Source: Sulfurirhabdus sp.
Lineage (GTDB): Bacteria > Pseudomonadota > Gammaproteobacteria > Burkholderiales > SMCO01
Length of the DNA: 24,000 nucleotides
NCBI GenBank assembly: GCA_043759595.1
Contig: JAYVLG010000071.1
Coordinates: 5,495 to 29,494 of the forward strand
Direction: 5' to 3'
This document shows, in pieces, positions 3,599 through 23,481 of this stretch. How positions within the stretch are numbered: the stretch's first letter is position 1; every line of letters begins with the position of its first letter. Made by a program: the position numbers and the translations under genes. The notes below the pieces were generated by a model. The model was not told the DNA's origin, made no database searches, and worked only from the letters and a program-made list of their open reading frames with translations.

Positions 3599-3630
3599 AA
3601 AAAAAAAGCGCAACCTATTTAGGTTGCGCT
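3599..3630 (-). terminator. strong unidirectional intrinsic terminator with no annotated gene upstream
   Basis: On the minus strand, a perfect 10-bp stem AGCGCAACCT/AGGTTGCGCT (3607-3616 / 3621-3630) with a 4-nt loop is followed by a run of 9 U (3599-3607). Confidence 0.8.
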
Positions 3631-3703
3631 AAAATCCACCAAAGAAGGGGGATGGAGGAGACACCATCAAGACGCTTATTAAGATGGGGAAGCGTCCAGA
3701 TGT
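3599..3703 (-). ncRNA. candidate ~105-nt small RNA (promoter + terminator defined), function unknown
   Basis: Bounded by the promoter-like TTGCAC-17-GATAAT (3738-3710) and the terminator at 3599-3630. It contains a hairpin GACGCTT...AAGCGTC (3671-3696) and a C/U-rich stretch CUCCUCCAUCCCCCUUCUUU. No ORF longer than 12 codons. Confidence 0.3.
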
Positions 3704-5030: not shown

Positions 5031-5063
5031 ATCCCACCTAAAACAACTTCTACACACAGAGCT

Positions 5064-5091
5064 TTCACCGCAGAGGCGCGGAGGCGCAGAG
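5064..5091 (+). repeat. family A repeat, copy A1 (TTCACC + 3 octamers), solo
   Basis: ttcaccgcagaggcgcggaggcgcagag. It lies between the convergent OsmC-family gene and the 5112-5438 ORF. Confidence 0.9.
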
Positions 5092-5111
5092 AAAACCGCC
5101 TCCCTACTTCT

Positions 5112-8635: not shown

Positions 8636-8858
8636 GTGTTTCTCCGTAAATTGGTTTGAGTTTACATTTTGCAACTGCCATTTAAAACTCGGCGTCGCAA
8701 AATTTACCTCTCTAAAACTGAGAAGTTGAGCCCATTGTGCCAAAGAGTGAAAAGTCATGACAAGCTTTTAATGAGCAACAGGTAACATTGGTCATTCTTA
8801 TTGTTGTTTTTTTGCAACATTGAATTATGGTCTTGCGAGAATTGCGCAGGGCGGTTTT

Positions 8859-8878
8859 TTACCGCAGAGGCGCGGAGG
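8859..8878 (+). repeat. family A repeat, copy A2 (truncated after 2 octamers)
   Basis: ttaccgcagaggcgcggagg. It is the left arm of an inverted pair with A3. Confidence 0.8.
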
Positions 8879-8970
8879 AAAGCGAAGCTTGTAATAGCTG
8901 TAAACAGTGGCGCTACGGTTTTGCCAGACTGGATACTTACGAATCAAGCAATTTGGAATGCCTTTACTTT

Positions 8971-8998
8971 CTCTGCGCCTCCGCGCCTCTGCGGTTAA
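8971..8998 (-). repeat. family A repeat, copy A3
   Basis: ctctgcgcctccgcgcctctgcggttaa, which matches rc of A5 28/28. Confidence 0.9.
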
Positions 8999-9007
8999 AC
9001 GGCTTTA

Positions 9008-9029
9008 AATGAAAACAGGGAACGTCCCT
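9008..9029 (-). terminator. weak candidate terminator after trpC
   Basis: On the minus strand, AGGGA-CGT-TCCCT (starting at the stop codon) is followed by GTTTTCATTT. The stem is short. Confidence 0.3.
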
Positions 9030-9871
9030 TAACCAAACAACCTTGCCAGCTCCTGACCCGGATCAGAGGCGCGCATGAATGCTTCACCGACGAGGAAGGT
9101 GTGGACGTTGTGATTACGCATGAGTGCGACGTCTTCTGGTTTGTGAATGCCGCTTTCGGTGACGACTATTCGGTCCGCAGGGATGTTTGACAACAATTCG
9201 AGGGTGGTTTCGAGGCGGGTTTCGAAGGTGCGCAAGTTTCGATTGTTGATGCCAATCAGGGGGGTGGTGAGTTGCAGGGCGATATCCAGTTCGGTGCTGT
9301 CGTGTACTTCTACCAGTACGGCCATGCCTAGTTTATGGGCTAGTTTCTCCAGTTCCTGCATGGCGGCAAGATTGAAGGTTGCGGCACCCTCTCCCCTGCC
9401 CTCTCCCATCGAGGGAGAGGGGGTTTGAAAGGCGGCGACTATGATCAATATGGCATCGGCTCCCATTGCGCGGGCTTCGTAGACTTGATACGGGTCTATC
9501 ATGAAATCTTTGCGCAATACTGGCAGGTTACAGGCTGCGCGGGCTTGTTTGAGATATTCTGCATTCCCCTGAAAAAATTGCTCGTCTGTTAATACAGACA
9601 GGCAAGCTGCACCATGTTGGGCGTAGCTTTGTGCAATTTCGGCGGGATTGAAATTTTCGCGTAGCAGGCCTTTGCTGGGGCTGGCTTTTTTGATTTCTGA
9701 AATAACAGCTGATTTGTCGGCCTGAATTTTGTTGCGAATGGCGGCTACAAAATCTCTTGGAGCGGGTTGTGCCTGGGCTTCTGCCTTGACCGCGTGTAAC
9801 GGTTTTGCGACTTTTGCTGTGGCTACTTCTTGCGCTTTGACGGAGAGGATTTTATTTAGGATATCGGACAT
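9029..9871 (-). CDS. trpC: indole-3-glycerol phosphate synthase, carrying an in-frame repeat-derived insertion
   Basis: 280 aa: [55 protein letters not shown]. There is an extra segment [19 protein letters not shown] between ILIIVAA and the following helix. Confidence 0.93.
9385..9423 (+). repeat. family C hairpin repeat, copy C1, inside the trpC coding sequence
   Basis: caccctctcccctgccctctcccatcgagggagaggggg, 37/39 identical to C6 at 12095-12133. It is translated on the minus strand as [12 protein letters not shown]. Confidence 0.9.
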
Positions 9872-9879
9872 AGTTTTTA

Positions 9880-9899
9880 TTCACCGCAAAGGCGCAGAG
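9880..9899 (+). repeat. family A repeat, copy A4 (two-octamer short form)
   Basis: ttcaccgcaaaggcgcagag. The head lies 9 nt upstream of the trpC ATG on the mRNA strand. Confidence 0.8.
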
Positions 9900-9974
9900 T
9901 AATTTAAATTAAGTTCAAGTACACCGGCACAAGAGTTACACATTATATTGCTCATATTTCCTAGCATGGTATTT

Positions 9975-10002
9975 TTAACCGCAGAGGCGCGGAGGCGCAG
10001 AG
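9975..10002 (+). repeat. family A repeat, copy A5 (encodes the C-terminus and stop of the GxxExxY gene)
   Basis: ttaaccgcagaggcgcggaggcgcagag. Its rc encodes ...SAPPRLCG*. Confidence 0.9.
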
Positions 10003-10409
10003 GTTTCTTGGAGCTGGTTCACTAGTCTCTTAATTCCAAGCTTTAGAATGGGAACATTGAAATTAATTAGCAGCCCTACGGTGCATGGGTATAGTTTGAG
10101 ATAGGTTAGCAACTGCGCTTCATGAATTGGGGCTAGTTTTTCGACTGTTTTAAGTTCAATGATTACGCTTCCTTCAACAACCAAATCCAGCATATAACCA
10201 CAATCCAGTTTTATATTCTTATAGCTGACTGGCAACGCTACTTGCCTGCGAAAACTGAGGCCTTGGCTGGATATTTCATAGCACAGGCACTCTTCATAGG
10301 CAGATTCCAACAGTCCGGGGCCTAGCGTACGGTGCACTTCAATTGCGCAACCAATGATCGCCTCGGTAATTTGGTTTTCACTCTGCGCCTCTGCGCCTCC
10401 GCGGTTCAT
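9975..10409 (-). CDS. GxxExxY family protein (PD-(D/E)XK nuclease superfamily fold)
   Basis: 144 aa with [25 protein letters not shown] (GLLESAY is the GxxExxY motif) and [13 protein letters not shown] (D...ExK). The ATG overlaps the trpD stop as ATGA (10406-10409). No SD. Confidence 0.85.
10381..10408 (-). repeat. family A repeat, copy A6 (encodes the N-terminus of the GxxExxY gene)
   Basis: ctctgcgcctctgcgcctccgcggttca. Its rc encodes [10 protein letters not shown]. The octamer order is permuted relative to A5. Confidence 0.9.
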
Positions 10410-11434
10410 TGCACTTTAAACTGATTTGAAAATGCTACCAGTTGTTGCAACTTGGCTTTGGCTGCTCCGTTTTCCAAAACTGCTTGGGCTTTTGCGACCC
10501 CTTCAGCCAGCGTGTCCGCCAGACCGGATGTGTATATTGCCGCGCCTGCATTAAGAGCTACGATATCGCGCGCCGAGCCGGGCTGATTTTCAAGCGCTGT
10601 CATCAACATGGCTTGAGCTTCTTCCAGATTGTGCACTTCCAGCGTGCTGGAACTGCTGGTGGCCAGGCCAAACTGGGCTGGGTTCAATATATATTCTTTT
10701 ACGTTACCGTCTTTCAGTTCTGCTACGTAGGTATCTCCCGCCAGGGAAATTTCATCGAGGCCATCTGCGGCATGCACGACCATGACATGGCGGCTACCCA
10801 GTTCTTTCAGGACATGGGCCAGCTTGCCTACCAGATCTTTGCTGAACACCCCCATCACCTGATTTTTTGCACCGGCTGGGTTGGTCATTGGGCCCAGTAA
10901 ATTGAACAAGGTACGCACACCCAGCTCCCGACGCACAGGTGCTGCATGTTTCATGGCGCTGTGGTGGTTGGGGGCAAACATGAAGCCGACACCGATTTCT
11001 TTTACCGATTGCGCGACCTGATCCGGGGTGACATTCACATTCACACCCAGCACTTCCAGTACATCGGCACTGCCACAAGTACTGGATACAGAACGTCCAC
11101 CATGCTTGGCAACTTTGGCGCCTGCTGCGGCGGCGACCAGTGCGCTGGCTGTGGAGATATTAAAGGTATGGGTGCCATCGCCACCGGTGCCGCAGGTGTC
11201 AACGACATGTTCCAGATCTTGCAGGGGTACTTTGGTGGCCAGTTCACGCATTACGTGGGCTGCGGCAGCGAGTTCGGTGACAGTTTCGCCTTTGCAGCGC
11301 AAGCCGATCAGTATGCCGGCAATTTGTACGGGGGTCATTTCGCCCCCCATGATTTGCTGCATGACTGCGAGCATTTCTTCGCGGGTGAGGTCGCGTTTTT
11401 CTATTAAGGCTGTAATTGCGGTTTTAGCGTCCAT
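10406..11434 (-). CDS. trpD: anthranilate phosphoribosyltransferase
   Basis: 342 aa: [45 protein letters not shown]. Confidence 0.95.
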
Positions 11435-11456
11435 TTATATTGCACCTGTTATTTTA

Positions 11457-11495
11457 CTCCCTCTCCCTTGATGGGAGAGGGCTGGGGAGAGGGTG
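11457..11495 (-). repeat. family C repeat, copy C2
   Basis: Its rc, caccctctccccagccctctcccatcaagggagagggag, is 38/39 identical to C6. Confidence 0.9.
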
Positions 11496-11514
11496 GAGAA
11501 ATAACGTTGGTTCG

Positions 11515-11553
11515 CCCCCTCTTCCTGTCCTTCTCCCACGAGGGGAGAAGGGA
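11515..11553 (+). repeat. family C repeat, copy C3 (diverged)
   Basis: ccccctcttcctgtccttctcccacgaggggagaaggga. It has the same architecture, with hairpin TTCTCCC-ACGA-GGGGAGAA. Confidence 0.75.
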
Positions 11554-11589
11554 CCTGCTAATCAGTTCTCATCCGGAAACATCTGTTTT

Positions 11590-11628
11590 TTCCTCCCCCT
11601 TGATGGGGGAAAGCCAGGGAGAGGATGG
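11590..11628 (-). repeat. family C repeat, copy C4 (diverged)
   Basis: ttcctcccccttgatgggggaaagccagggagaggatgg. Confidence 0.7.
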
Positions 11629-11646
11629 TAACGCCTTGAAATTTAA

Positions 11647-11684
11647 CCCCTATCCCCAGCCCTCTCCCACAAGGGGAGAGGGAG
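11647..11684 (+). repeat. family C repeat, copy C5
   Basis: cccctatccccagccctctcccacaaggggagagggag. Confidence 0.8.
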
Positions 11685-11750
11685 ATGTAGTGTTTCCGGA
11701 TGGGAACTAATTAATATGATCTTATAATGCCGACACCCAAGCTTTTGGCT

Positions 11751-12119
11751 CTACCGCATTAAATGTTGGGTAATGACATCCCATACACCATCCATATTCT
11801 GCAACACATCATGATTCCAGAATCTTAACACTTCAAACCCTTGTGATTGGAGCCAGCTTGTCCTTGTTTCGTCTTTTATTTCATGCACTGGGTCTGCATG
11901 TTTGCCCCCATCCAGCTCTACCACCAATTTTTTCTCGAAGCAGACAAAATCTACCACATAGTTGCCTATGGGTTGCTGCCGTTTGAATTTGCATCCATGC
12001 AACTGTTTGGCTCGCAGTTGCTGCCATAGCTTTTTTTCAGCTTCGGTGATGTTTTTTCTTAGCTGTTTGGCTATGTCGGTTAAATGGTTTGGCACACCCT
12101 CTCCCCTGCCCTCTCCCAT
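11751..12119 (-). CDS. DUF559 domain endonuclease-like protein (Vsr-like PD-(D/E)XK fold)
   Basis: LRKNITEAEKKLWQQLR...FKRQQPIGNYVVDFVCFEKKLVVELDGGKHAD...RTSWLQSQGFEVLRFWNHDV is the DUF559 pattern. The ATG at 12119 (or TTG at 12122) lies in the loop of repeat C6, and the N-terminus MGEGRGEG is repeat-encoded. No SD. Confidence 0.8.
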   Translation of the reverse strand: MGEGRGEGVPNHLTDIAKQLRKNITEAEKKLWQQLRAKQLHGCKFKRQQPIGNYVVDFVCFEKKLVVELDGGKHADPVHEIKDETRTSWLQSQGFEVLRFWNHDVLQNMDGVWDVITQHLMR

Positions 12120-12133
12120 CAAGGGAGAGGGAG
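12095..12133 (+). repeat. family C repeat, copy C6 (contains the DUF559 start codon; ends 1 nt from the trpG stop)
   Basis: caccctctcccctgccctctcccatcaagggagagggag. Confidence 0.9.
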
Positions 12134-12134
12134 T

Positions 12135-12704
12135 TTAAGTGCCTCCGCGCAGAAAATTAGCCAGCATTTCGTGCCCGTATTCGGTAAGTATGGATTCCGG
12201 GTGGAATTGCACGCCTTCTACGGCCAGGGTTTTATGACGCACGCCCATGATTTCCTGATCTTCTGTCCAGGCAGTGATTTCCAGGCAATCTGGCAAGCTT
12301 TCACGTTCGATCACCAATGAATGATAGCGTGTGGCATTGAACGGGTTTGCCAAACCTTTAAACACGCCGATATCTTTGTGATATACCTGTGAGGTTTTGC
12401 CATGCATGAGCTGTTTGGCATGGACTATCTTGCCGCCGAATGCCTGGCCGATACTCTGATGCCCCAGACAGACACCTAAAATAGGCGTCTTTCCTGCAAA
12501 CTGCTTTATTAACGGTACGGAAATGCCGGCTTCGTTGGGTGTGCAGGGGCCGGGAGAAATGACAATATGGGTGGGGTTCAATACGGCCACCTGATTCAGG
12601 TCTATTTCATCATTTCGGTACACCACGACTTCCTGGTTTAACTCTCCAAAATACTGAACGAGGTTGTAGGTGAAGGAGTCGTAATTGTCGATCATTAACA
12701 GCAT
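12135..12704 (-). CDS. trpG: anthranilate synthase component II (glutamine amidotransferase)
   Basis: 189 aa: [26 protein letters not shown] (catalytic Cys), [13 protein letters not shown]. Confidence 0.93.
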
Positions 12705-12709
12705 ATTTT

Positions 12710-12737
12710 TTCACCACAGCGGCACAGAGGCATAGAG
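12710..12737 (+). repeat. family A repeat, copy A7 (decayed, 6 mismatches)
   Basis: ttcaccacagcggcacagaggcatagag. The head lies 6 nt upstream of the trpG ATG on the mRNA strand. Confidence 0.7.
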
Positions 12738-12797
12738 AAAGTCAAAACCATTATTTGAATCTCTTTGATTCGTTTTTTAGCATTGAGCGAGTTGGCA

Positions 12798-14276
12798 TTA
12801 GTCATGGGCTGTTTCCCCCAATCCGGCGAGTACCAGTTCTGCGGCACGTAGCACGGCCCGGGCTTTATTCTGGGTTTCTGTCCATTCGCTTTGTGGTACG
12901 GAATCCGCCACGATGCCGGCGCCAGCCTGGACGTACAGGGTGTCATCCTGAATCACAGCTGTGCGGATGGCGATGGCTAAATCCATGTCACCATTAAATC
13001 CCAGATAACCGACTGCGCCAGCGTAAACACCGCGTTTGGTAGGTTCCAGTTCGTCGATAATTTCCATGGCGCGCACTTTGGCTGCGCCGGACACCGTTCC
13101 GGCCGGGAAGGTGGCGCGCAGTACGTCCATATTATTGAGGCCGGGTTTTAGCTTGGCTTCTACATTGGAAACAATGTGCATCACATGGGAATAATGTTCG
13201 ATATTCATGTTTTCCGTGACTTTGACGCTGCCTGTCTGCGCTACCCGTCCAATGTCGTTGCGACCCAGATCCATCAGCATGAGGTGCTCAGCCAGTTCTT
13301 TGGGATCGGACAGCAAGTCTTTGGCCAAGGCTTCATCTTCTTCACGGGTAATGCCACGAGGGCGAGTACCGGCTATAGGTCTGACAGTGACTTCATCGCC
13401 TTCCTGGCGCACCAGAATTTCTGGCGAGGCACCAACCACATGGAAACCGCCCATGTCGTAATAAAACATGTACGGAGAAGGATTGAGGCTACGCAATGCG
13501 CGATACAAGGAAAGGGGTGAAGCAATAAATGGCTGGCTCATGCGTTGCGACAGCACAACCTGCATGATGTCGCCGTCAAAAATATATTGCTTGGCGCGCT
13601 CAACGGCTGCTTTGAAAGCGTCTTCACCAAATTCGGATACCGCTTGCACTGGCCCAACCGGCGCATGTAATGAAGCATCTACCGGCCGACTCAGGTTCCT
13701 GCCCAATTCATGCAAGCGTTGCTGTGCCAGCAAATAGGCATCAGGAACAAACGGGTCTGCATACACAATCAGATAGAGCTTGCCGGAAAGATTATCTACG
13801 ACAGCCAATTCTTCTGACAAAAGCAGCAAAATGTCCGGCATGTGGAGCGTATCGGGCTTGCTGGATTTGGCTAGTTTTGGCTCAATGTAACGAACGGTGT
13901 CGTAGCCAAAGTAACCTACCAGACCACCCCCGAACCGGGGCAGCCCAGGGCGGGGAGCAACATTGAAGCGCTGCATGTAGTCGCTGATGAAGGCCAGCGG
14001 ATCAGCGACGTCCTGTTGTTCCAGAATGCCTTCGTTATTTTCTACAGTGACCAGATGGCCATGCACACGAATGCGGGTTTTGGCAGGCAGGCCGATAAAT
14101 GAGTAGCGACCAAAACGTTCGCCCCCCTGCACGGATTCCAGCAGGTAGGAGAAAGGCTGATTCGCCAGTTTGAGATAAACCGATAAAGGCGTGTCCAGAT
14201 CGGACAGCATTTCTTTTACCAGCGGAATCCGGTTGTAGCCCTGACGGGCCAGTTCGATAAATTCTTGTTCAGTCAT
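12798..14276 (-). CDS. trpE: anthranilate synthase component I
   Basis: 492 aa: [65 protein letters not shown]. Confidence 0.95.
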
Positions 14277-14281
14277 GATTT

Positions 14282-14309
14282 TTCACCACAGAGACAATGA
14301 GACACAGAG
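14282..14309 (+). repeat. family A repeat, copy A8 (decayed, 7 mismatches)
   Basis: ttcaccacagagacaatgagacacagag. The head lies 6 nt upstream of the trpE ATG on the mRNA strand. Confidence 0.7.
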
Positions 14310-14354
14310 AAAACGTTAAATACAAACCATCCGGCTTGCGCCAAACGTAAGCAC

Positions 14355-14386
14355 AAAAGGACAGCATCGCCATGATGCTGCCTTTG
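14355..14386 (-). terminator. candidate terminator downstream of gph
   Basis: On the minus strand, GGCAGCATC-ATGGC-GATGCTGTCC is followed by TTTTGTGCTT. Confidence 0.5.
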
Positions 14387-14399
14387 TACTGATTTGTGC

Positions 14400-14419
14400 C
14401 TCTGCGCCTTTGTGGTTCA
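14400..14419 (-). repeat. family A repeat, copy A9 (two-octamer short form)
   Basis: ctctgcgcctttgtggttca, whose rc resembles A4. It lies 5 nt from the gph stop. Confidence 0.7.
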
Positions 14420-14424
14420 CGCCA

Positions 14425-17422: not shown

Positions 17423-18637
17423 ATGGAAAGCCAAATCAAAACCGCTTCACCCTTATTTGCCATCCTTTTCCTGTTATTTGGCATCAGTGCCTGTACGACG
17501 GTTTCCAAACCGAAGGTTGCCCCTCCAGCTATCGCACTTCCCCCTGTAGTGACTCCGCCAGTTAGTGTGAAAACTGAACCCGCTGCACCGACGCTGCAAA
17601 TAAGTGACTGGAAAGCTTTGCCTGGCTGGCAGGATGATAACCAGGCTACCGCCTGGGAAGCCTTTCTGCAAAGTTGTAACGGCCTGAAAAATCAGGTTGC
17701 ATGGCAGCAAGTATGTAAATCAGGGCAGCAAATTCAACACCCTGACAGCCAGTCCCTGAGACGATTTTTTGAACAGAATTTCACCCCTTATCTGGCAACA
17801 AACCCGGACGGGACGTCCCAAGGCATGATCACAGGTTATTACGAACCTGTGTTAAGAGGCAGCCGCACCCGCACTGCAAAATACCGCTTTCCACTCTATG
17901 GGGCGCCGGGCGATTTACTCAATATCGAACTGGCTGATGTTTATCCGGAGCTGAAGGGCTTGCGGTTACGAGGCCGCATTCAAGGCAATAAAGTTGTGCC
18001 TTATTACAGCCGTGCTGAAATTGAAAGTGCACAGTCACCGCTGAAAGGGTCAGAATTTTTATGGGTTGATGATGCTATCGACCTGTTCTTTTTGCATGTT
18101 CAGGGTTCCGGCCGTGTGAAACTCGAAAATGGCGAATCTGTGAGAATCGGATATGCCAACCAAAATGGCTTCCCTTATAAATCCATTGGCAAAGTTTTGG
18201 TTGATCGTGGCGAGCTGCCCCTGGAAAAAGCATCTGCACAAGGCATTAAAGACTGGACGCTGAAAAATCCGGGAAAAATGTCCGAGTTGTTAAACAACAA
18301 TGCCAGTTATGTGTTTTTTCGGGAGATGCCGAATCATCAAAATGGTCCGACCGGATCGCTTGGTGTTCCCCTCACAGCCGGACGCAGCATTGCCGTTGAC
18401 CCCCGCTCTATACCACTGGGCGCACCGGTTTTCCTTTCCACCACCTGGCCTAACAGTACCAAACCCCTTAGCCGTTTAGTGATGGCACAAGATACGGGTG
18501 CTGCAATCAAAGGTGGCGTTCGCGCTGATTTCTTTTGGGGATTTGGTAATGATGCGGGAGCACTTGCCGGCCGCATGAAACAGCAGGGGCAATTATGGGT
18601 ATTGTTGCCCAAGGGATACCCGGTTAGCACGAATTAG
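17423..18637 (+). CDS. mltA: membrane-bound lytic murein transglycosylase A (lipoprotein)
   Basis: Lipobox ...LFGISAC, then ITGYYEP, FLHVQGSGRV, YKSIG, SIAVDP, AQDTGAAIKG (MltA/3D domain motifs). Confidence 0.9.
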   Translation: MESQIKTASPLFAILFLLFGISACTTVSKPKVAPPAIALPPVVTPPVSVKTEPAAPTLQISDWKALPGWQDDNQATAWEAFLQSCNGLKNQVAWQQVCKSGQQIQHPDSQSLRRFFEQNFTPYLATNPDGTSQGMITGYYEPVLRGSRTRTAKYRFPLYGAPGDLLNIELADVYPELKGLRLRGRIQGNKVVPYYSRAEIESAQSPLKGSEFLWVDDAIDLFFLHVQGSGRVKLENGESVRIGYANQNGFPYKSIGKVLVDRGELPLEKASAQGIKDWTLKNPGKMSELLNNNASYVFFREMPNHQNGPTGSLGVPLTAGRSIAVDPRSIPLGAPVFLSTTWPNSTKPLSRLVMAQDTGAAIKGGVRADFFWGFGNDAGALAGRMKQQGQLWVLLPKGYPVSTN

Positions 18638-18722
18638 CTCTCATCCGGAAACAACTGCCCCCCTCCCTTTGATGTGGGAGGGCCAGGGAGGGGTATAGCG
18701 TTTCCGGATGAGAACTCATTAA
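18634..18722. mobile_element. nested MITE-like element (family D TIRs around one family C copy) filling the mltA/TonB-like convergent gap
   Basis: ttagctctcatccggaaaca (18634-18653) and gtttccggatgagaactcattaa (18700-18722) are inverted repeats around C7. The ends include the mltA TAG (18635-18637) and the TonB-like TAA (rc 18719-18721). It probably acts as a bidirectional terminator hairpin. Confidence 0.65.
18657..18694 (-). repeat. family C repeat, copy C7 (diverged)
   Basis: cccccctccctttgatgtgggagggccagggaggggta. Confidence 0.7.
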
Positions 18723-20421: not shown

Positions 20422-20506
20422 GTATTTTTCCGGTCACTATGCGCCAATAAGTGCATTGTGCTGATAGGTGTGTAGAAAGAAATACACGCCTATTCACACA
20501 AATTAG

Positions 20507-20527
20507 TTCACCGCAGAGGCGCGGAGG
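20507..20527 (+). repeat. family A repeat, copy A10 (truncated)
   Basis: ttcaccgcagaggcgcggagg. Confidence 0.8.
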
Positions 20528-20585
20528 GAAAAGCGGTTTCGAGGTGCTTCAGGTTGCGTATGGTGGTCGTTAATGCGCCGAATAA

Positions 20586-20617
20586 CGGTCAATGCACTTC
20601 GCTTATTGACACCCTAC
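20586..20617 (-). repeat. family B REP hairpin, copy B1 (GTAG head on minus strand)
   Basis: The rc reads GTAGGGTGTCAATAAGCGAAGTGCATTGACCG. Confidence 0.7.
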
Positions 20618-20701
20618 AACACGCCTTGCATGCGTTGCAAGTCAGTAAGGCTCTTGGCGACGCAGCAGCCATCCAGAATTTAAGTTCAATCATCTCAATT
20701 G

Positions 20702-20782
20702 TTGGTTATACTAATTTACAGTGTTTGCTAGTATAACCAACATAATCAGTTATACTATAATTGTTCTATTGTTAGTATAACC
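20702..20782. promoter_or_regulatory. double palindromic operator-like site overlapping a TATAAT box, directly upstream of the NTase gene
   Basis: TTGGTTATACTA (20702-20713), 15 nt, then TAGTATAACCAA (20729-20740) form perfect 12-bp arms. GTTATACTA (20749-20757), 15 nt, then TAGTATAAC (20773-20781) form the second. A perfect TATAAT lies at 20756-20761. The gene ATG is at 20786. Confidence 0.55.
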
Positions 20783-20785
20783 ATC

Positions 20786-21847
20786 ATGAACCTTTACACG
20801 GAATTAACCAATACGGCACAAACCGCCTATGCGCAACTTGTTGATGCGGCATTGTCTGCAGAGCATTTACGCTCGGTTGCAGACCTTTCTGGCTCCTTTG
20901 CGGCAAAGACGGTCAAGGGGCACAAATATTGGTACTACCAGTACACCGAGCCGTCAGGGAAGTTGCGGCAAGTTTTCGTAGGACCGGACAATGACGGGGT
21001 TAGAGCACTGATCGAGCGCAAAATACAACCCGCTTCCACTAAAGCGCTTGAACCACTTGCGCGTTCGGCTGAAGCCCTAGGTTGCGCCCCCGTGCTACCG
21101 CGCCATTTCAGAGTAGTACGCCGTCTGGCGGAGTACGGTTTTTTCCAAGCCGGAGGCGTGTTGATTGGCACGCACGCCTTTCTGGCATACGGCAACATGC
21201 TGGGGGTGCAATGGGGCGACGCTTCGCGCACGCAGGACATTGACTTCGCCCATGCAGGCAAGAGCTTGTCCCTCGCCTTACCTTCGAACATCGAGGTGCA
21301 AACGCATGACGCCATTCAATCTCTGCGAATGGGCTTCCTGCCTATTTCCGGGCTATCCTCCAAGGCTGGTGGCACTTACCTCATTCCGCAAGAGCCAGGA
21401 TTCAGGCTGGATTTTCTGACAACGCTTCATCGAGGCGGCGAAAAACCTTACGAACATAAACAATTGCACGTAACCCTGCAACCGCTCAAGTTCATGGAGT
21501 TCTCACTTGAACAAGTGCAACAAACCGTATTGTTCTGCAACGAAGGCGCGGTGGTTGTCAATATACCGCACCCCCTTCGCTATGCCTTGCACAAAGCGCT
21601 GATATCTGGAGAACGCGAAGGTACATTTGCCGTAAAAGCTGGAAAGGATTTGCGGCAAGTGGCATCCCTGCTTTCTTTTTTCAAGGAACACAGAGCGTGG
21701 GAAATCGAAGAGATTTGGAATGACCTGATTACACGCGGCAAGGGATGGACAACCCGAGCGCACAGAGGGATTAAGGTGTTGGACAAAGGGTTCCCAGCGC
21801 TTTGTTTGCATGATTTGTTAAGATTCCCGGATGCTTCGACCAAGTAA
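20786..21847 (+). CDS. nucleotidyltransferase-fold protein, AbiEii/DUF1814-like (GSU2403-type) with ~110-aa N-terminal extension
   Basis: NTase-like GGVLIGTHAFLAYG...RTQDIDFAH, a third acidic strand FRLDFLT, and a C-terminal HKALISGER...KAGKDLRQV resembling the AbiEii K..A...R...RDL..L region. Family recognition is from memory, not a search. Confidence 0.7.
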   Translation: MNLYTELTNTAQTAYAQLVDAALSAEHLRSVADLSGSFAAKTVKGHKYWYYQYTEPSGKLRQVFVGPDNDGVRALIERKIQPASTKALEPLARSAEALGCAPVLPRHFRVVRRLAEYGFFQAGGVLIGTHAFLAYGNMLGVQWGDASRTQDIDFAHAGKSLSLALPSNIEVQTHDAIQSLRMGFLPISGLSSKAGGTYLIPQEPGFRLDFLTTLHRGGEKPYEHKQLHVTLQPLKFMEFSLEQVQQTVLFCNEGAVVVNIPHPLRYALHKALISGEREGTFAVKAGKDLRQVASLLSFFKEHRAWEIEEIWNDLITRGKGWTTRAHRGIKVLDKGFPALCLHDLLRFPDASTK

Positions 21848-21914
21848 ACGTTGAGATTTAATACCAGTTCAGAAATGCGTATAAAAGAAATACACGAGTA
21901 TTCACACAAAATAG

Positions 21915-21942
21915 TTCACCGCAGAGACGCGGAGGCGCAGAG
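21915..21942 (+). repeat. family A repeat, copy A11
   Basis: ttcaccgcagagacgcggaggcgcagag (1 mismatch to A1). Confidence 0.9.
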
Positions 21943-22006
21943 GAAAAGGCTGTTTCGAGGTGCATCAACTCGCTTAGAGTGATCGATAAAGCAACGAATA
22001 AAACAT

Positions 22007-22040
22007 CCGGTGCAATGCGCTTCGCTTATTGACACCCTAC
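22007..22040 (-). repeat. family B REP hairpin, copy B2
   Basis: The rc reads GTAGGGTGTCAATAAGCGAAGCGCATTGCACCGG. Confidence 0.75.
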
Positions 22041-22141
22041 AAGATGCCTTACGCGCGCTATGGCTTACCCCGGCACTTTTAGCAAAATGGGCACGCTGTA
22101 AATAAAGTGGATGATACAAATCCAATTTAGAGGGAAACTAA

Positions 22142-23050
22142 TTGATCAATCTACGAACCACCGTATTTAACACATTGTTGCTTGCCATGTTTTGTCTGCC
22201 AATTAGCAGTTATGCCGCGACGGTGGGGCAACAATTCCGCGACATCATGGCGCAGATTGATGCCAAGTGTAAAAAAGAAAAACTCGGTCCATATCTTGAC
22301 CCAAATGAACCCCCACGCTCAGACAAACGCTCTGATGGTTCCTGCGAAATTCTCAAGGTCAAACCCGCCGACCCGCTGGCAACGGCAGAAGGGCGCTTTG
22401 CCTATTCCATCAAATTGCCACCGCCGCATGACAAGCCGAAAGTCGAATACCGGAAAGGCATGAGCGCGGAGACCTACTTTAAGGAGTTGTGCGCTAAAGA
22501 GGAGGGGGATTTTGTGTTCCGGGTGGTTGATGGAGTGGAGGGGATTACAATTATGCGGCCATTGCCGCAGGTAATCGGCATTCCTTTGTCGCAGGAGTCA
22601 GGGGGGCCAACCGTAGGTTCTTTTGTATCATCTATCAACGGAATATACAGATATGTTGATGCGGTTGAGCTTCTCGAAAACTCAAACACACAAACCCAAC
22701 TAATTCATTATAAAGTTGACCCGAAATTGCCGGTTAACAAACCGCCATACGGTAAGGCGAGTTATGCCATCAAAGAATCGCAAGCGCGCTATGGCTACAC
22801 ATTTCGAAATTCATTTCTGGAAAATAGAGAAATTGGAGTTGTGGGACAGGAATTAATTATTGCAGATCTGCAAACCAATGAGATTCTTGCATTTCGGCGT
22901 AGATTTTCACGATTAAATTTTATGGTTCGTAACTCTGTTCGACCTATGTTAGGCACACCTTGCAGATTAATACCTACCGAAAACTCAGATAACAGATTTG
23001 TCGCAAAAATTCTCAAACCTGCAAAACAAGCTAAAGGAGATCAGAAATGA
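22142..23050 (+). CDS. secreted protein of unknown function
   Basis: TTG start with a GAGGGA SD 7 nt upstream. Signal peptide MINLRTTVFNTLLLAMFCLPISSYA/AT. The 3' third is visibly AT-rich. No family recognised. Confidence 0.6.
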   Translation: MINLRTTVFNTLLLAMFCLPISSYAATVGQQFRDIMAQIDAKCKKEKLGPYLDPNEPPRSDKRSDGSCEILKVKPADPLATAEGRFAYSIKLPPPHDKPKVEYRKGMSAETYFKELCAKEEGDFVFRVVDGVEGITIMRPLPQVIGIPLSQESGGPTVGSFVSSINGIYRYVDAVELLENSNTQTQLIHYKVDPKLPVNKPPYGKASYAIKESQARYGYTFRNSFLENREIGVVGQELIIADLQTNEILAFRRRFSRLNFMVRNSVRPMLGTPCRLIPTENSDNRFVAKILKPAKQAKGDQK

Positions 23051-23151
23051 GCACAATTATTCAAACCTGGTATAACTTTGCTCTGCAACAGTTCGCGCAA
23101 GAGCGCAATAACCAAAGGGCATTGCGCCGCATGCAAGAGATGAGATGCTAA
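23047..23151 (+). CDS. possible 34-codon micro-ORF translationally coupled to the secreted-protein gene
   Basis: The ATG overlaps the upstream TGA (ATGA at 23047-23050). It translates to MSTIIQTWYNFALQQFAQERNNQRALRRMQEMRC. It is below the ORF-track size cutoff, and the overlap is the only support. Confidence 0.2.
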   Translation: MSTIIQTWYNFALQQFAQERNNQRALRRMQEMRC

Positions 23152-23163
23152 CGCCATTTCTGA

Positions 23164-23387
23164 TTATCAACGCGCCCGACATCCAAGTGGCACCTATTTC
23201 CCACTGTCAATCTGTCACAACGTAACGGATGAGTAAAGTAAGAGCCAGCCAGTGTGAACGGCGGTTTTGAGAGCGCTTAATCCGGGACGAAGAAGATTAT
23301 CGGGCACATATGAATTATGAGCATATCAATACGGTGAAGCGTGGTTTGGTTGGGCAGGTGATGGCGGCGCTAAGTTATACATACTAA
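23164..23387 (+). pseudogene. decayed REP-associated tyrosine transposase (RAYT / TnpA_REP) remnant
   Basis: The frame at 23170-23232 gives ..TSKWHLFPTVNLSQRNG*, resembling the RAYT N-terminal strand (GTWFFTVNLRNR). A second frame at 23253-23387 gives CERRF*ERLIRDEEDYRAHMNYEHINTVKRGLVGQV..., matching the RAYT C-terminus (RFWEH.IR...DYR.H.DYI.INPVK.G.V.QV) with W changed to a stop. The central HUH region is missing. Confidence 0.65.
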
Positions 23388-23390
23388 CAT

Positions 23391-23423
23391 CCGGTGCAAT
23401 GCCCTTCGGTTATTGCACCCTAC
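23391..23423 (-). repeat. family B REP hairpin, copy B3 (best palindrome)
   Basis: The rc reads GTAG-GGTGCAAT-AACCGAAGGGC-ATTGCACC-GG: a GTAG head plus a perfect 8-bp stem. It starts 4 nt after the RAYT remnant. Confidence 0.8.
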
Positions 23424-23441
23424 ACAACGCCTTGTTTTTTT

Positions 23442-23469
23442 CTCTGCGTCTCCGCGCCTCTGCGGTTAA
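23442..23469 (-). repeat. family A repeat, copy A12
   Basis: ctctgcgtctccgcgcctctgcggttaa (rc has 1 mismatch to A5). Confidence 0.9.
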
Positions 23470-23481
23470 AAAGGCATTTCT

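Follow-up and report, generated by a model that had tools for sequence, protein, structure and literature searches.

Why should the tryptophan operon of a bacterium hold two small nuclease genes between its biosynthetic cistrons, each enclosed by inverted copies of a different short repeat? The question is raised by 24,000 nucleotides (nt) of Sulfurirhabdus sp. (contig JAYVLG010000071.1, positions 5,495 to 29,494; hereafter the window), in which six open reading frames (ORFs), all with strong Pfam or NCBIfam matches, run on the minus strand throughout 9029–14276 in the order trpE, trpG, DUF559, trpD, GxxExxY and trpC. A first-pass annotation of this DNA had supposed that small nuclease genes are each associated with a cognate repeat, and the supposition holds: each of the small nuclease genes goes with a repeat family of its own, in an association that is found across bacteria at large and is specific in both directions. 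The pairing itself appears to be undescribed, the protein and repeat families being already known; no paper linking the DUF559, GxxExxY or GIY-YIG gene families to repeats was found in a literature search that did not cover most subscription journals.

Two nuclease genes within their own inverted repeats

The gene at the trpD–trpC junction (9975–10409, minus strand) encodes a 144-residue GxxExxY/PDDEXK_3 nuclease with full-length matches to PF13366 (5.3e-45; 153 bits, cutoff 22) and TIGR04256 (5.7e-47; 158.9 bits, cutoff 35). GPGLLESAY and the catalytic D...ELK (the D...ExK of PD-(D/E)XK) are present, and are invariant in homologue alignments; the AF2 model has a pLDDT of 86, with the repeat-encoded C-terminal tail disordered. 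Both ends of the gene lie in family A, a repeat of about three tandem octamers (ACCGCAGAGGCGCGGAGGCGCAGAG). A 26-nt inverted pair (9977–10002 and 10381–10406, 92% complementary) spans its first and last codons, the left terminal inverted repeat (10378–10409, inverted repeat I12) encoding MNRGGAEAQ and the right one (9972–10005, located by repeat finding) encoding SAPPRLCG and the stop. The putative cassette would thus extend over 9972–10409, its first and last ~26 nt being inverted tandem-octamer copies.

The second gene, between trpG and trpD (11751–12122, minus strand), encodes a 123-residue YcjD-like DUF559 nuclease of the Vsr fold, with a full-length match to PF04480 (1.5e-43; 147.5 bits, cutoff 20.6) and a match to PDB 3HRL (3e-31). 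Against the NCBIfam YcjD equivalog the protein scores 109 bits where the cutoff is 218, and it is therefore not an orthologue of Escherichia coli YcjD itself. It lies between 40-nt inverted arms of family C (inverted repeat I1, 98% complementary), and the candidate cassette would run from 11456 to 12134. The left arm, copy C6 (12095–12134), matches the TMECO motif (PMC4666352), encodes the N-terminal MGEGRGEG and supplies an SD-like (Shine–Dalgarno-like) GGAG; the right arm (11456–11495) ends 21 nt before the trpD start codon.

The placement of the two starts had been read correctly at the outset, that of GxxExxY overlapping the trpD stop (ATGA) and the TTG and ATG starts of DUF559 lying 12–15 nt past the trpG stop, where 15 nt had been given. 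Two further statements, that neither passenger gene has an SD sequence of its own and that both have repeat-encoded termini, stand for GxxExxY and need amending for DUF559, in which the repeat's third arm, rich in G (GGGGAGAGGG), is SD-like and sits 5 nt before an in-frame GTG, and in which only the N-terminus is repeat-encoded, the stop falling 37 nt short of the next repeat.

Family C, whose C-rich arm is followed by a loop and then by two G-rich arms, occurs seven times in the window (9385–9424, 11456–11495, 11517–11551, 11592–11627, 11648–11684, 12095–12134 and 18659–18697), six times in the trp cluster and in one case inside trpC; the copy at 11517–11551 is degenerate by repeat finding. 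The form of the copies is a C-rich arm, a 3–6-nt loop, a complementary G arm, a short spacer and a second G arm, ~34–40 nt in length. Judged by its sequence, family C is the published BoxC/TMECO/PIT G/C-rich intrastrand-triplex motif: the three-arm design is the same and the letters near-identical (CCCTCTCCC, loop, GGGAGAGGG, spacer, GGGGAGAGGG), copies such as CCCTCTCCCTTGATGGGAGAGGGCTGGGGAGAGGG agree with Table 1 of PMC4666352, and the copies are likewise intergenic and often in inverted doublets (PMC4666352). Folding predicts only the hairpin, and for BoxC/TM itself the triplex was seen with a single strand in vitro but neither in duplex DNA nor in vivo (PMC4666352). Holder et al. (2015; PMC4666352) recorded BoxC/TM from over 260 genomes, that of E. 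coli K-12 having 23 copies, tied it to genomic instability, and reported neither an associated mobility gene nor a common flanking gene. Here, by contrast, the motif brackets DUF559, one copy is in frame in trpC, and two others lie in a transposable element of the miniature inverted-repeat type (MITE).

That MITE is a composite in which inverted ends of family D (11559–11581 and 11691–11713) enclose copies C4 and C5, the whole (11559–11713) having ATTAG on both sides. The D and C repeats at the trpG–trpD junction had been listed together; the copies are indeed there, and family D with C4 and C5 makes up a separate element. Its absence from Sulfurirhabdus autotrophica and its direct repeat mark it as a recent insertion. 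A second such element (18632–18721; RNA fold z = −5.9), placed between mltA-like and tonB-like genes, has inverted ends of family D on either side of a single TM copy, and an unrelated element can thus carry TM copies.

Most of the repeats in the window have no gene: ten family A arms and five family C copies. The twelve family A arms, located by repeat finding and a pattern scan, lie at 5063–5094, 8855–8878, 8968–8999, 9877–9900, 9972–10005, 10378–10409, 12707–12730, 14279–14302, 14389–14420, 20504–20527, 21912–21945 and 23439–23470. Those at 8855–8999, 3' of trpC, form a gene-less, REPIN- or MITE-like inverted pair (I18; 22 nt, 95% complementary, 99-nt loop; RNA fold z = −6.5), and a degenerate gene-less pair occupies the gph–trpE spacer (14274–14420; z = −5.8). 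Solo arms are found at 9872–9910 (A4, also kept in S. autotrophica), with its GGTGAA end 8 nt before the trpC ATG, and at 12702–12740 (A7, degenerate by repeat finding), directly 5' of the trpG ATG. In these solo or right-hand family A arms the GGTGAA end stands 7–9 nt before the ATG of trpC, trpG and trpE (9872–9910, 12702–12740 and 14274–14312), and may at present provide the trp gene that follows with its SD sequence.

Families A, C and D are thus recovered by repeat finding and by pattern scans, with family A or family C at each trp junction and the intragenic copy C1, much as they were first described. The accompanying idea of an insertion hotspot has a real basis, in that repeats occupy 5/5 host junctions of the trp cluster versus 5/20 elsewhere in the window, but the enrichment is modest (Fisher p = 0.0047).

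Reach and specificity of the gene–repeat pairing

The association extends far beyond this operon. An alignment query for DUF559, with one genome per species and the best 80 loci retained across many phyla, was combined with a hairpin detector that finds exactly the seven family C copies in the window. A TM-type hairpin lies within 150 nt of DUF559 at all 80 loci, and on both sides at 69 of them, the flanking arms being inverted copies of each other; hairpin density is 3.85/kb near the gene versus 0.216/kb in the flanks, an 18-fold difference. For GxxExxY, metagenomes were searched with an alignment headed by a remote member of the family, one without repeat-encoded termini. Flanking inverted repeats score at least 12 at 53 of 77 testable loci, a score reached by none of 385 shuffles, and essentially all of the arms consist of tandem 8–10-nt units that open with TTCACC[AG]C[AG]GAG and vary by lineage. 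The reciprocal control separates the two families: only 2/80 GxxExxY loci have a TM hairpin within 150 nt, and octamer runs accompany 48/80 GxxExxY loci versus 0/80 DUF559 loci. The TM and inverted-repeat tests were made on DNA and are independent of ORF calls.

The same picture emerges from the 120 closest homologues of GxxExxY, which are 69–100% identical and come from Sulfuricellaceae, Deltaproteobacteria and Verrucomicrobia. A repeat-encoded start of the MNRRGAETQRE type is present in 117, an end of the SAPPRLCG type in 112, and both in 109; GEG/PSP ends are present in at least 60 of 120 DUF559 homologues, and neither type of end crosses into the other family. At the DNA level the close loci begin with ATGAACCGCAGAGG or a near variant and end in CTGCGGT followed by an A-rich tail (GAA, TAA or AAA), and their contexts include nuoF–nuoG, phd–parE and trpD–trpC. 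With the same inverted repeats, the gene is found between nuoF and nuoG with start and stop codons overlapping both neighbours (L087/L088), and also between the genes of a PhdYeFM antitoxin and a ParE toxin (L090). Among the top family representatives (P0241–P0256) are proteins of 260–295 residues with two tandem GxxExxY domains, the outcome either of a fusion of adjacent cassettes or of true duplication.

Gene-less pairs with the same arms were met in the window, in Sulfuricella (three pairs in 12 kb) and at L100 and L133, and some of them retain the ATGAACC left end of the gene. Near distant GxxExxY genes, cognate extra copies number 5 in 105 kb versus 0.008/kb per non-cognate core, a difference in the right direction with numbers too small to carry weight.

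Two further cases, neither of them in the window, bear on the association. In E. coli K-12 the DUF559 gene ycjD ends (...SPSP and stop) inside a degenerate TM, and canonical TMECO no. 9 lies 170 nt downstream; in the K-12 sequence (NC_000913.3, 1351200–1351760) the 3' end of ycjD is partly duplicated just after the gene, and the canonical TMECO comes next. The gene is single-copy and present in 3378/5426 complete E. coli genomes (62%), where it replaces the eefRABCD operon in the interval from fabI to sapF, a replacement that apparently happened independently at least twice (PMC12817139). Its natural presence in some genomes and absence from the rest permits a genetic test. The other case is a 94-residue GIY-YIG gene that occupies the trpG–trpD junction of Sulfuricella sp. 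(L003:4590–4980), flanked by inverted CGTC-ATTCCGGC-GAAA-GCCGGAAT-CCAG hairpins. Hairpins of the CGTC type flank 4/4 GIY-YIG loci looked at, the other three (L173, L174 and L175) being in other operons, and the flanking repeat fits, by its letters, the CGTC-1 REP class and neisserial dRS3. CGTC-tagged REPs are spread over five phyla and, according to Di Nocera et al. (2013; PMC3733652), have no transposase dedicated to them. This is a third instance of one architecture.

Age, selection and the possible role of the nucleases

Most of the inserts are old: the nearest genome found, S. autotrophica (GxxExxY 94% identical), shares the order trpE-trpG-DUF559-trpD-GxxExxY-trpC and an insertion in trpC. 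The latter gene (9029–9871, minus strand; Pfam IGPS 3.7e-90, in two matched stretches) is split in frame by copy C1 (core 9385–9424), which lies in an insertion of 54 nt, or 18 residues (9377–9430, minus strand), that an alignment of TrpC places in the window and S. autotrophica only, and not in Sulfuricella, L089 or L091. GxxExxY lies exactly at trpD–trpC in Sulfuricella and two further lineages as well, so that all five lineages sampled carry it there. Small foreign cistrons can evidently persist for long inside essential operons, and repeats even inside an essential gene, without breaking them. The trpG–trpD junction is more variable, with DUF559 in the window, GIY-YIG in Sulfuricella, and no insert in L089 and L091, from which exact insertion boundaries are not definable as the sequences are too diverged. 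In Sulfuricella a canonical family A inverted pair stands at every trp junction, its loop being 16 nt, ~90 nt or the whole GxxExxY ORF; the pair at trpE–trpG is a canonical hairpin with the 16-nt loop (RNA fold z = −10.3), and the one at gph–trpE is canonical where that of the window is degenerate.

Selection has acted on genes and repeats alike. In the relatives, GxxExxY is 94/74/71/71% identical to the window protein versus 94/72/62/71% for TrpD; its divergence keeps step with TrpD and TrpC, and its ratio of nonsynonymous to synonymous divergence (dN/dS) is 0.07–0.10, which marks it as a long-lived selected resident and not a transient parasite. DUF559 evolves faster (72% identity, dN/dS 0.22) and has not decayed. 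Catalytic motifs are invariant. The repeat arms are constrained as nucleic acid: the octamer inverted repeats have changed at purine positions only, with no changes at third codon positions despite saturated synonymous divergence (dS), and the TM region at 11435–11562 is 94.5% identical to that of S. autotrophica versus a trpD dS of 0.68.

What, then, might the nucleases be doing? With moderate confidence we read the two loci as cassettes of a nuclease gene plus inverted repeats, accompanied by gene-less derivatives, in a partnership akin to that of RAYTs and REPINs, in which the nuclease would act on its own hairpin repeats and host repair would copy them. Gene and terminal inverted hairpin repeats would form one inherited unit that recurs across bacterial phyla, and the gene-less arms and pairs of the window would be its non-autonomous (REPIN- or MITE-like) counterparts. 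Each nuclease would recognise the hairpin or cruciform of its own repeat. After cleavage, host repair or recombination might copy, homogenise or maintain the repeats, and occasionally the nuclease gene too; this action on the repeat and this route of copying we infer from the architecture. Expression would come from the trp transcript, through the start/stop overlap for GxxExxY and the repeat-borne SD for DUF559. No promoter-like or terminator-like site was found on the trp coding strand between trpE and the end of trpC, and the passenger genes therefore most likely rely on operon transcription. The reliance on the operon that the original notion of parasitised expression implies is therefore likely, but the parasite itself is a poor likeness of GxxExxY, co-inherited as it is in at least five lineages under strong constraint.

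The analogy with RAYT and REP, drawn from the start with the proviso of another fold, is borne out by the inverted hairpin flanks and gene-less copies. In both systems one small gene lies within inverted hairpin repeats and, present as a single copy, is passed on vertically under purifying selection; the same repeats also occur, here in the window and in Sulfuricella, as gene-less intergenic singlets and inverted doublets. The nuclease would then stand to its repeat as RAYT does to REPINs, with another fold and hence another chemistry. The differences are that RAYT is an HUH/Y1 transposase (PF01797) whereas only PDDEXK_3 (PF13366) and Vsr-like DUF559 (PF04480) are present here, that there is no GTAG tag, that most genomes sampled have the two flanking arms only, and that the action on the repeat is here presumptive. 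Terminal inverted repeats, and short gene-less derivatives that outnumber the gene-bearing copy, are also features of MITEs and their parent transposons; unlike these, the cassettes have neither a DDE nor any other transposase, and families A and C show no target-site duplication whereas the family D MITE has ATTAG.

Several observations count against the cassette reading. PD-(D/E)XK, Vsr-like and GIY-YIG nucleases cut DNA and are not known to join strands, so that copying by the nuclease alone would need host repair. At the outer flanks of families A and C no target-site duplication is discernible, and this speaks against a cut-and-paste transposon of the classical kind. The inheritance of GxxExxY at trpD–trpC looks vertical and its selection like that of a host gene, and family C copies also move in an unrelated MITE with its own ends and ATTAG duplication. 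In most other genomes only the two flanking arms were seen within 3–10 kb, not a dispersed family, so that the dispersed part of the pattern is lineage-specific. The 80 loci of each scan are best tblastn matches and not a random sample, and the DUF559 set covers the short YcjD-like subfamily only. A biochemical or genetic link of either protein to its repeat was not found in the literature searched.

A wider form of the proposal can be put forward only tentatively. Single-domain nucleases would be the missing cognate enzymes of orphan hairpin repeats, GxxExxY/PDDEXK_3 of the octamers, YcjD-like DUF559 of BoxC/TM, and small GIY-YIG proteins of the CGTC REPs (dRS3-like). Together these would make up a general class, in parallel with RAYT/REPIN, of minimal elements spreading by structure-specific cleavage and host repair without a transposase. 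If this were true, two very large families of unknown function would acquire a role, GxxExxY alone comprising ~24,000 clusters at 50% identity. BoxC/TM and the CGTC REPs have no known mobility function according to the papers that describe them (PMC4666352, PMC3733652); the pairing gives each a candidate enzyme, and the origin of these repeats becomes a testable question.

It is conceivable, if rather unlikely, that the genes are instead homing-type parasites. The repeats would then have spread by other means, through another transposase or by hitch-hiking in MITEs, and would be a landing pad and not a product of the nuclease; the nuclease genes would cut gene-less repeats or the empty junction and be copied in by recombinational repair. 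The geometry suits this account, given that the two arms enclose each gene exactly as their "loop" and that the loops of gene-less pairs, 16–99 nt long, are unrelated, and TM repeats, near-identical across phyla, would offer a universal target whose spread without DUF559 is illustrated by the D-C-D MITE. Vsr-like and PD-(D/E)XK homing endonucleases exist (PMC3424549), and the free-standing homing genes, such as seg and mob of phage T4, are also small nuclease ORFs between conserved genes, transcribed by the host, with different nuclease genes alternating at one junction in related genomes. The alternation of DUF559 and GIY-YIG at trpG–trpD, with two other relatives empty, would be of this kind, as would the single-copy ycjD of E. 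coli with its apparently repeated replacement of eefRABCD. However, homing genes have no terminal inverted repeats or gene-less repeat derivatives, and arms of 25–40 nt are short for homologous repair. Homing genes are also sporadic and short-lived, typically decaying once fixed, whereas GxxExxY is present at trpD–trpC in every lineage sampled and is strongly selected. The insertion sites, moreover, are unrelated loci (trp, nuo, phd/parE), and at many DUF559 loci no further TM lies within 10 kb.

Long residence under selection could also be the mark of domestication, and an account on which the genes now serve the host, in repair, defence or RNA and DNA processing, with neither genes nor repeats still mobile, seems to us improbable, though like the homing account it is a serious rival. 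The hairpins would then act on RNA as insulators, stabilisers or processing sites, and permit a foreign cistron without polarity. That GxxExxY diverges at the pace of TrpD and TrpC under low dN/dS agrees with this, as does repeat conservation beyond the neutral expectation. Stems of the family A pairs are very stable in RNA folding (z = −5.8 to −10.3). Such a stem would hide the start codon of GxxExxY within it and leave GGTGA ahead of the ATG that follows; on the coding strand no terminator-like T-run was found 3' of the hairpins. RAYTs, too, have been described as domesticated genes, present in single copy and passed on vertically (PMC5581495). Such an account does not explain why each of three unrelated nuclease folds should have a private repeat family, why the same cassette appears in unrelated operons (nuoF–nuoG, phd–parE), or why gene-less copies exist, one of them inside trpC; and TM motifs had neither promoter nor terminator activity in an earlier study, so far as PMC4666352 cites it. 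Coincidence or faulty annotation, with repeats gathering in non-coding space and ORF calls running into them, might be suspected since the repeats are confined to intergenic DNA and several repeat-encoded termini hinge on the choice of start codon, but is most improbable, being refuted by the hairpins at 80/80 versus 2/80 loci, the reciprocal octamer control, the shuffles and the DNA-level tests.

Host genes and further repeats of the window

The remaining host genes of the cluster, all on the minus strand, are trpE (12798–14276; anthranilate synthase component I; Pfam Chorismate_bind 3.5e-95 and Anth_synt_I_N), trpG (12135–12704; glutamine amidotransferase; Pfam GATase 2.3e-63) and trpD (10406–11434; Pfam Glycos_transf_3 8.1e-100). 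A trp attenuator was considered for the gph–trpE spacer and set aside: the small ORF of the spacer contains only one Trp codon, and the hairpin and T-run there fit a gph terminator.

Family A was not matched to any published repeat: no paper on octamer-type repeats was found in a search that left out most subscription journals, and an Rfam search of the repeats returned no family, only miRNA noise matches below threshold. A TGAA target-site duplication had seemed consistent at six sites and was rejected, because distant relatives have perfect TTCACC...GGTGAA ends with a flank that is not duplicated, TGAA...TGAA being a variant of these ends; one gene-less pair of Sulfuricella, with TTCACC at its left end, counts against the duplication too. 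A RAYT was also considered as the mobiliser of family A, there being a Y1_Tnp gene 1.5 kb from homologue L090, and was set aside since no family A repeats surround Y1_Tnp. Sulfuricella holds, 3' of trpC (L003:7240–7480), a gene-less inverted pair of another octamer-type repeat (TTATCCACGGAT...ACACGGAT / ATCTGTGT...ATCCGTGGATAA), so that more than one octamer family can be present in one genome.

Two other features of the window deserve mention. Between inverted family A arms (20504–20527 and 23439–23470) lies a stretch of ~3 kb (20476–23472) with an NTP_transf_8 nucleotidyltransferase gene and a 302-residue ORF without a Pfam match; its left end (~170 nt) is duplicated at 21884–22057, and a module of 30–55 nt occurs three times (from 20579, 22002 and 23386). 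Upstream of rplM, at 3600–3663 on the minus strand, Rfam places a Betaproteobacteria_toxic_sRNA (RF02278) with 61.3 bits, above the gathering score of 50.

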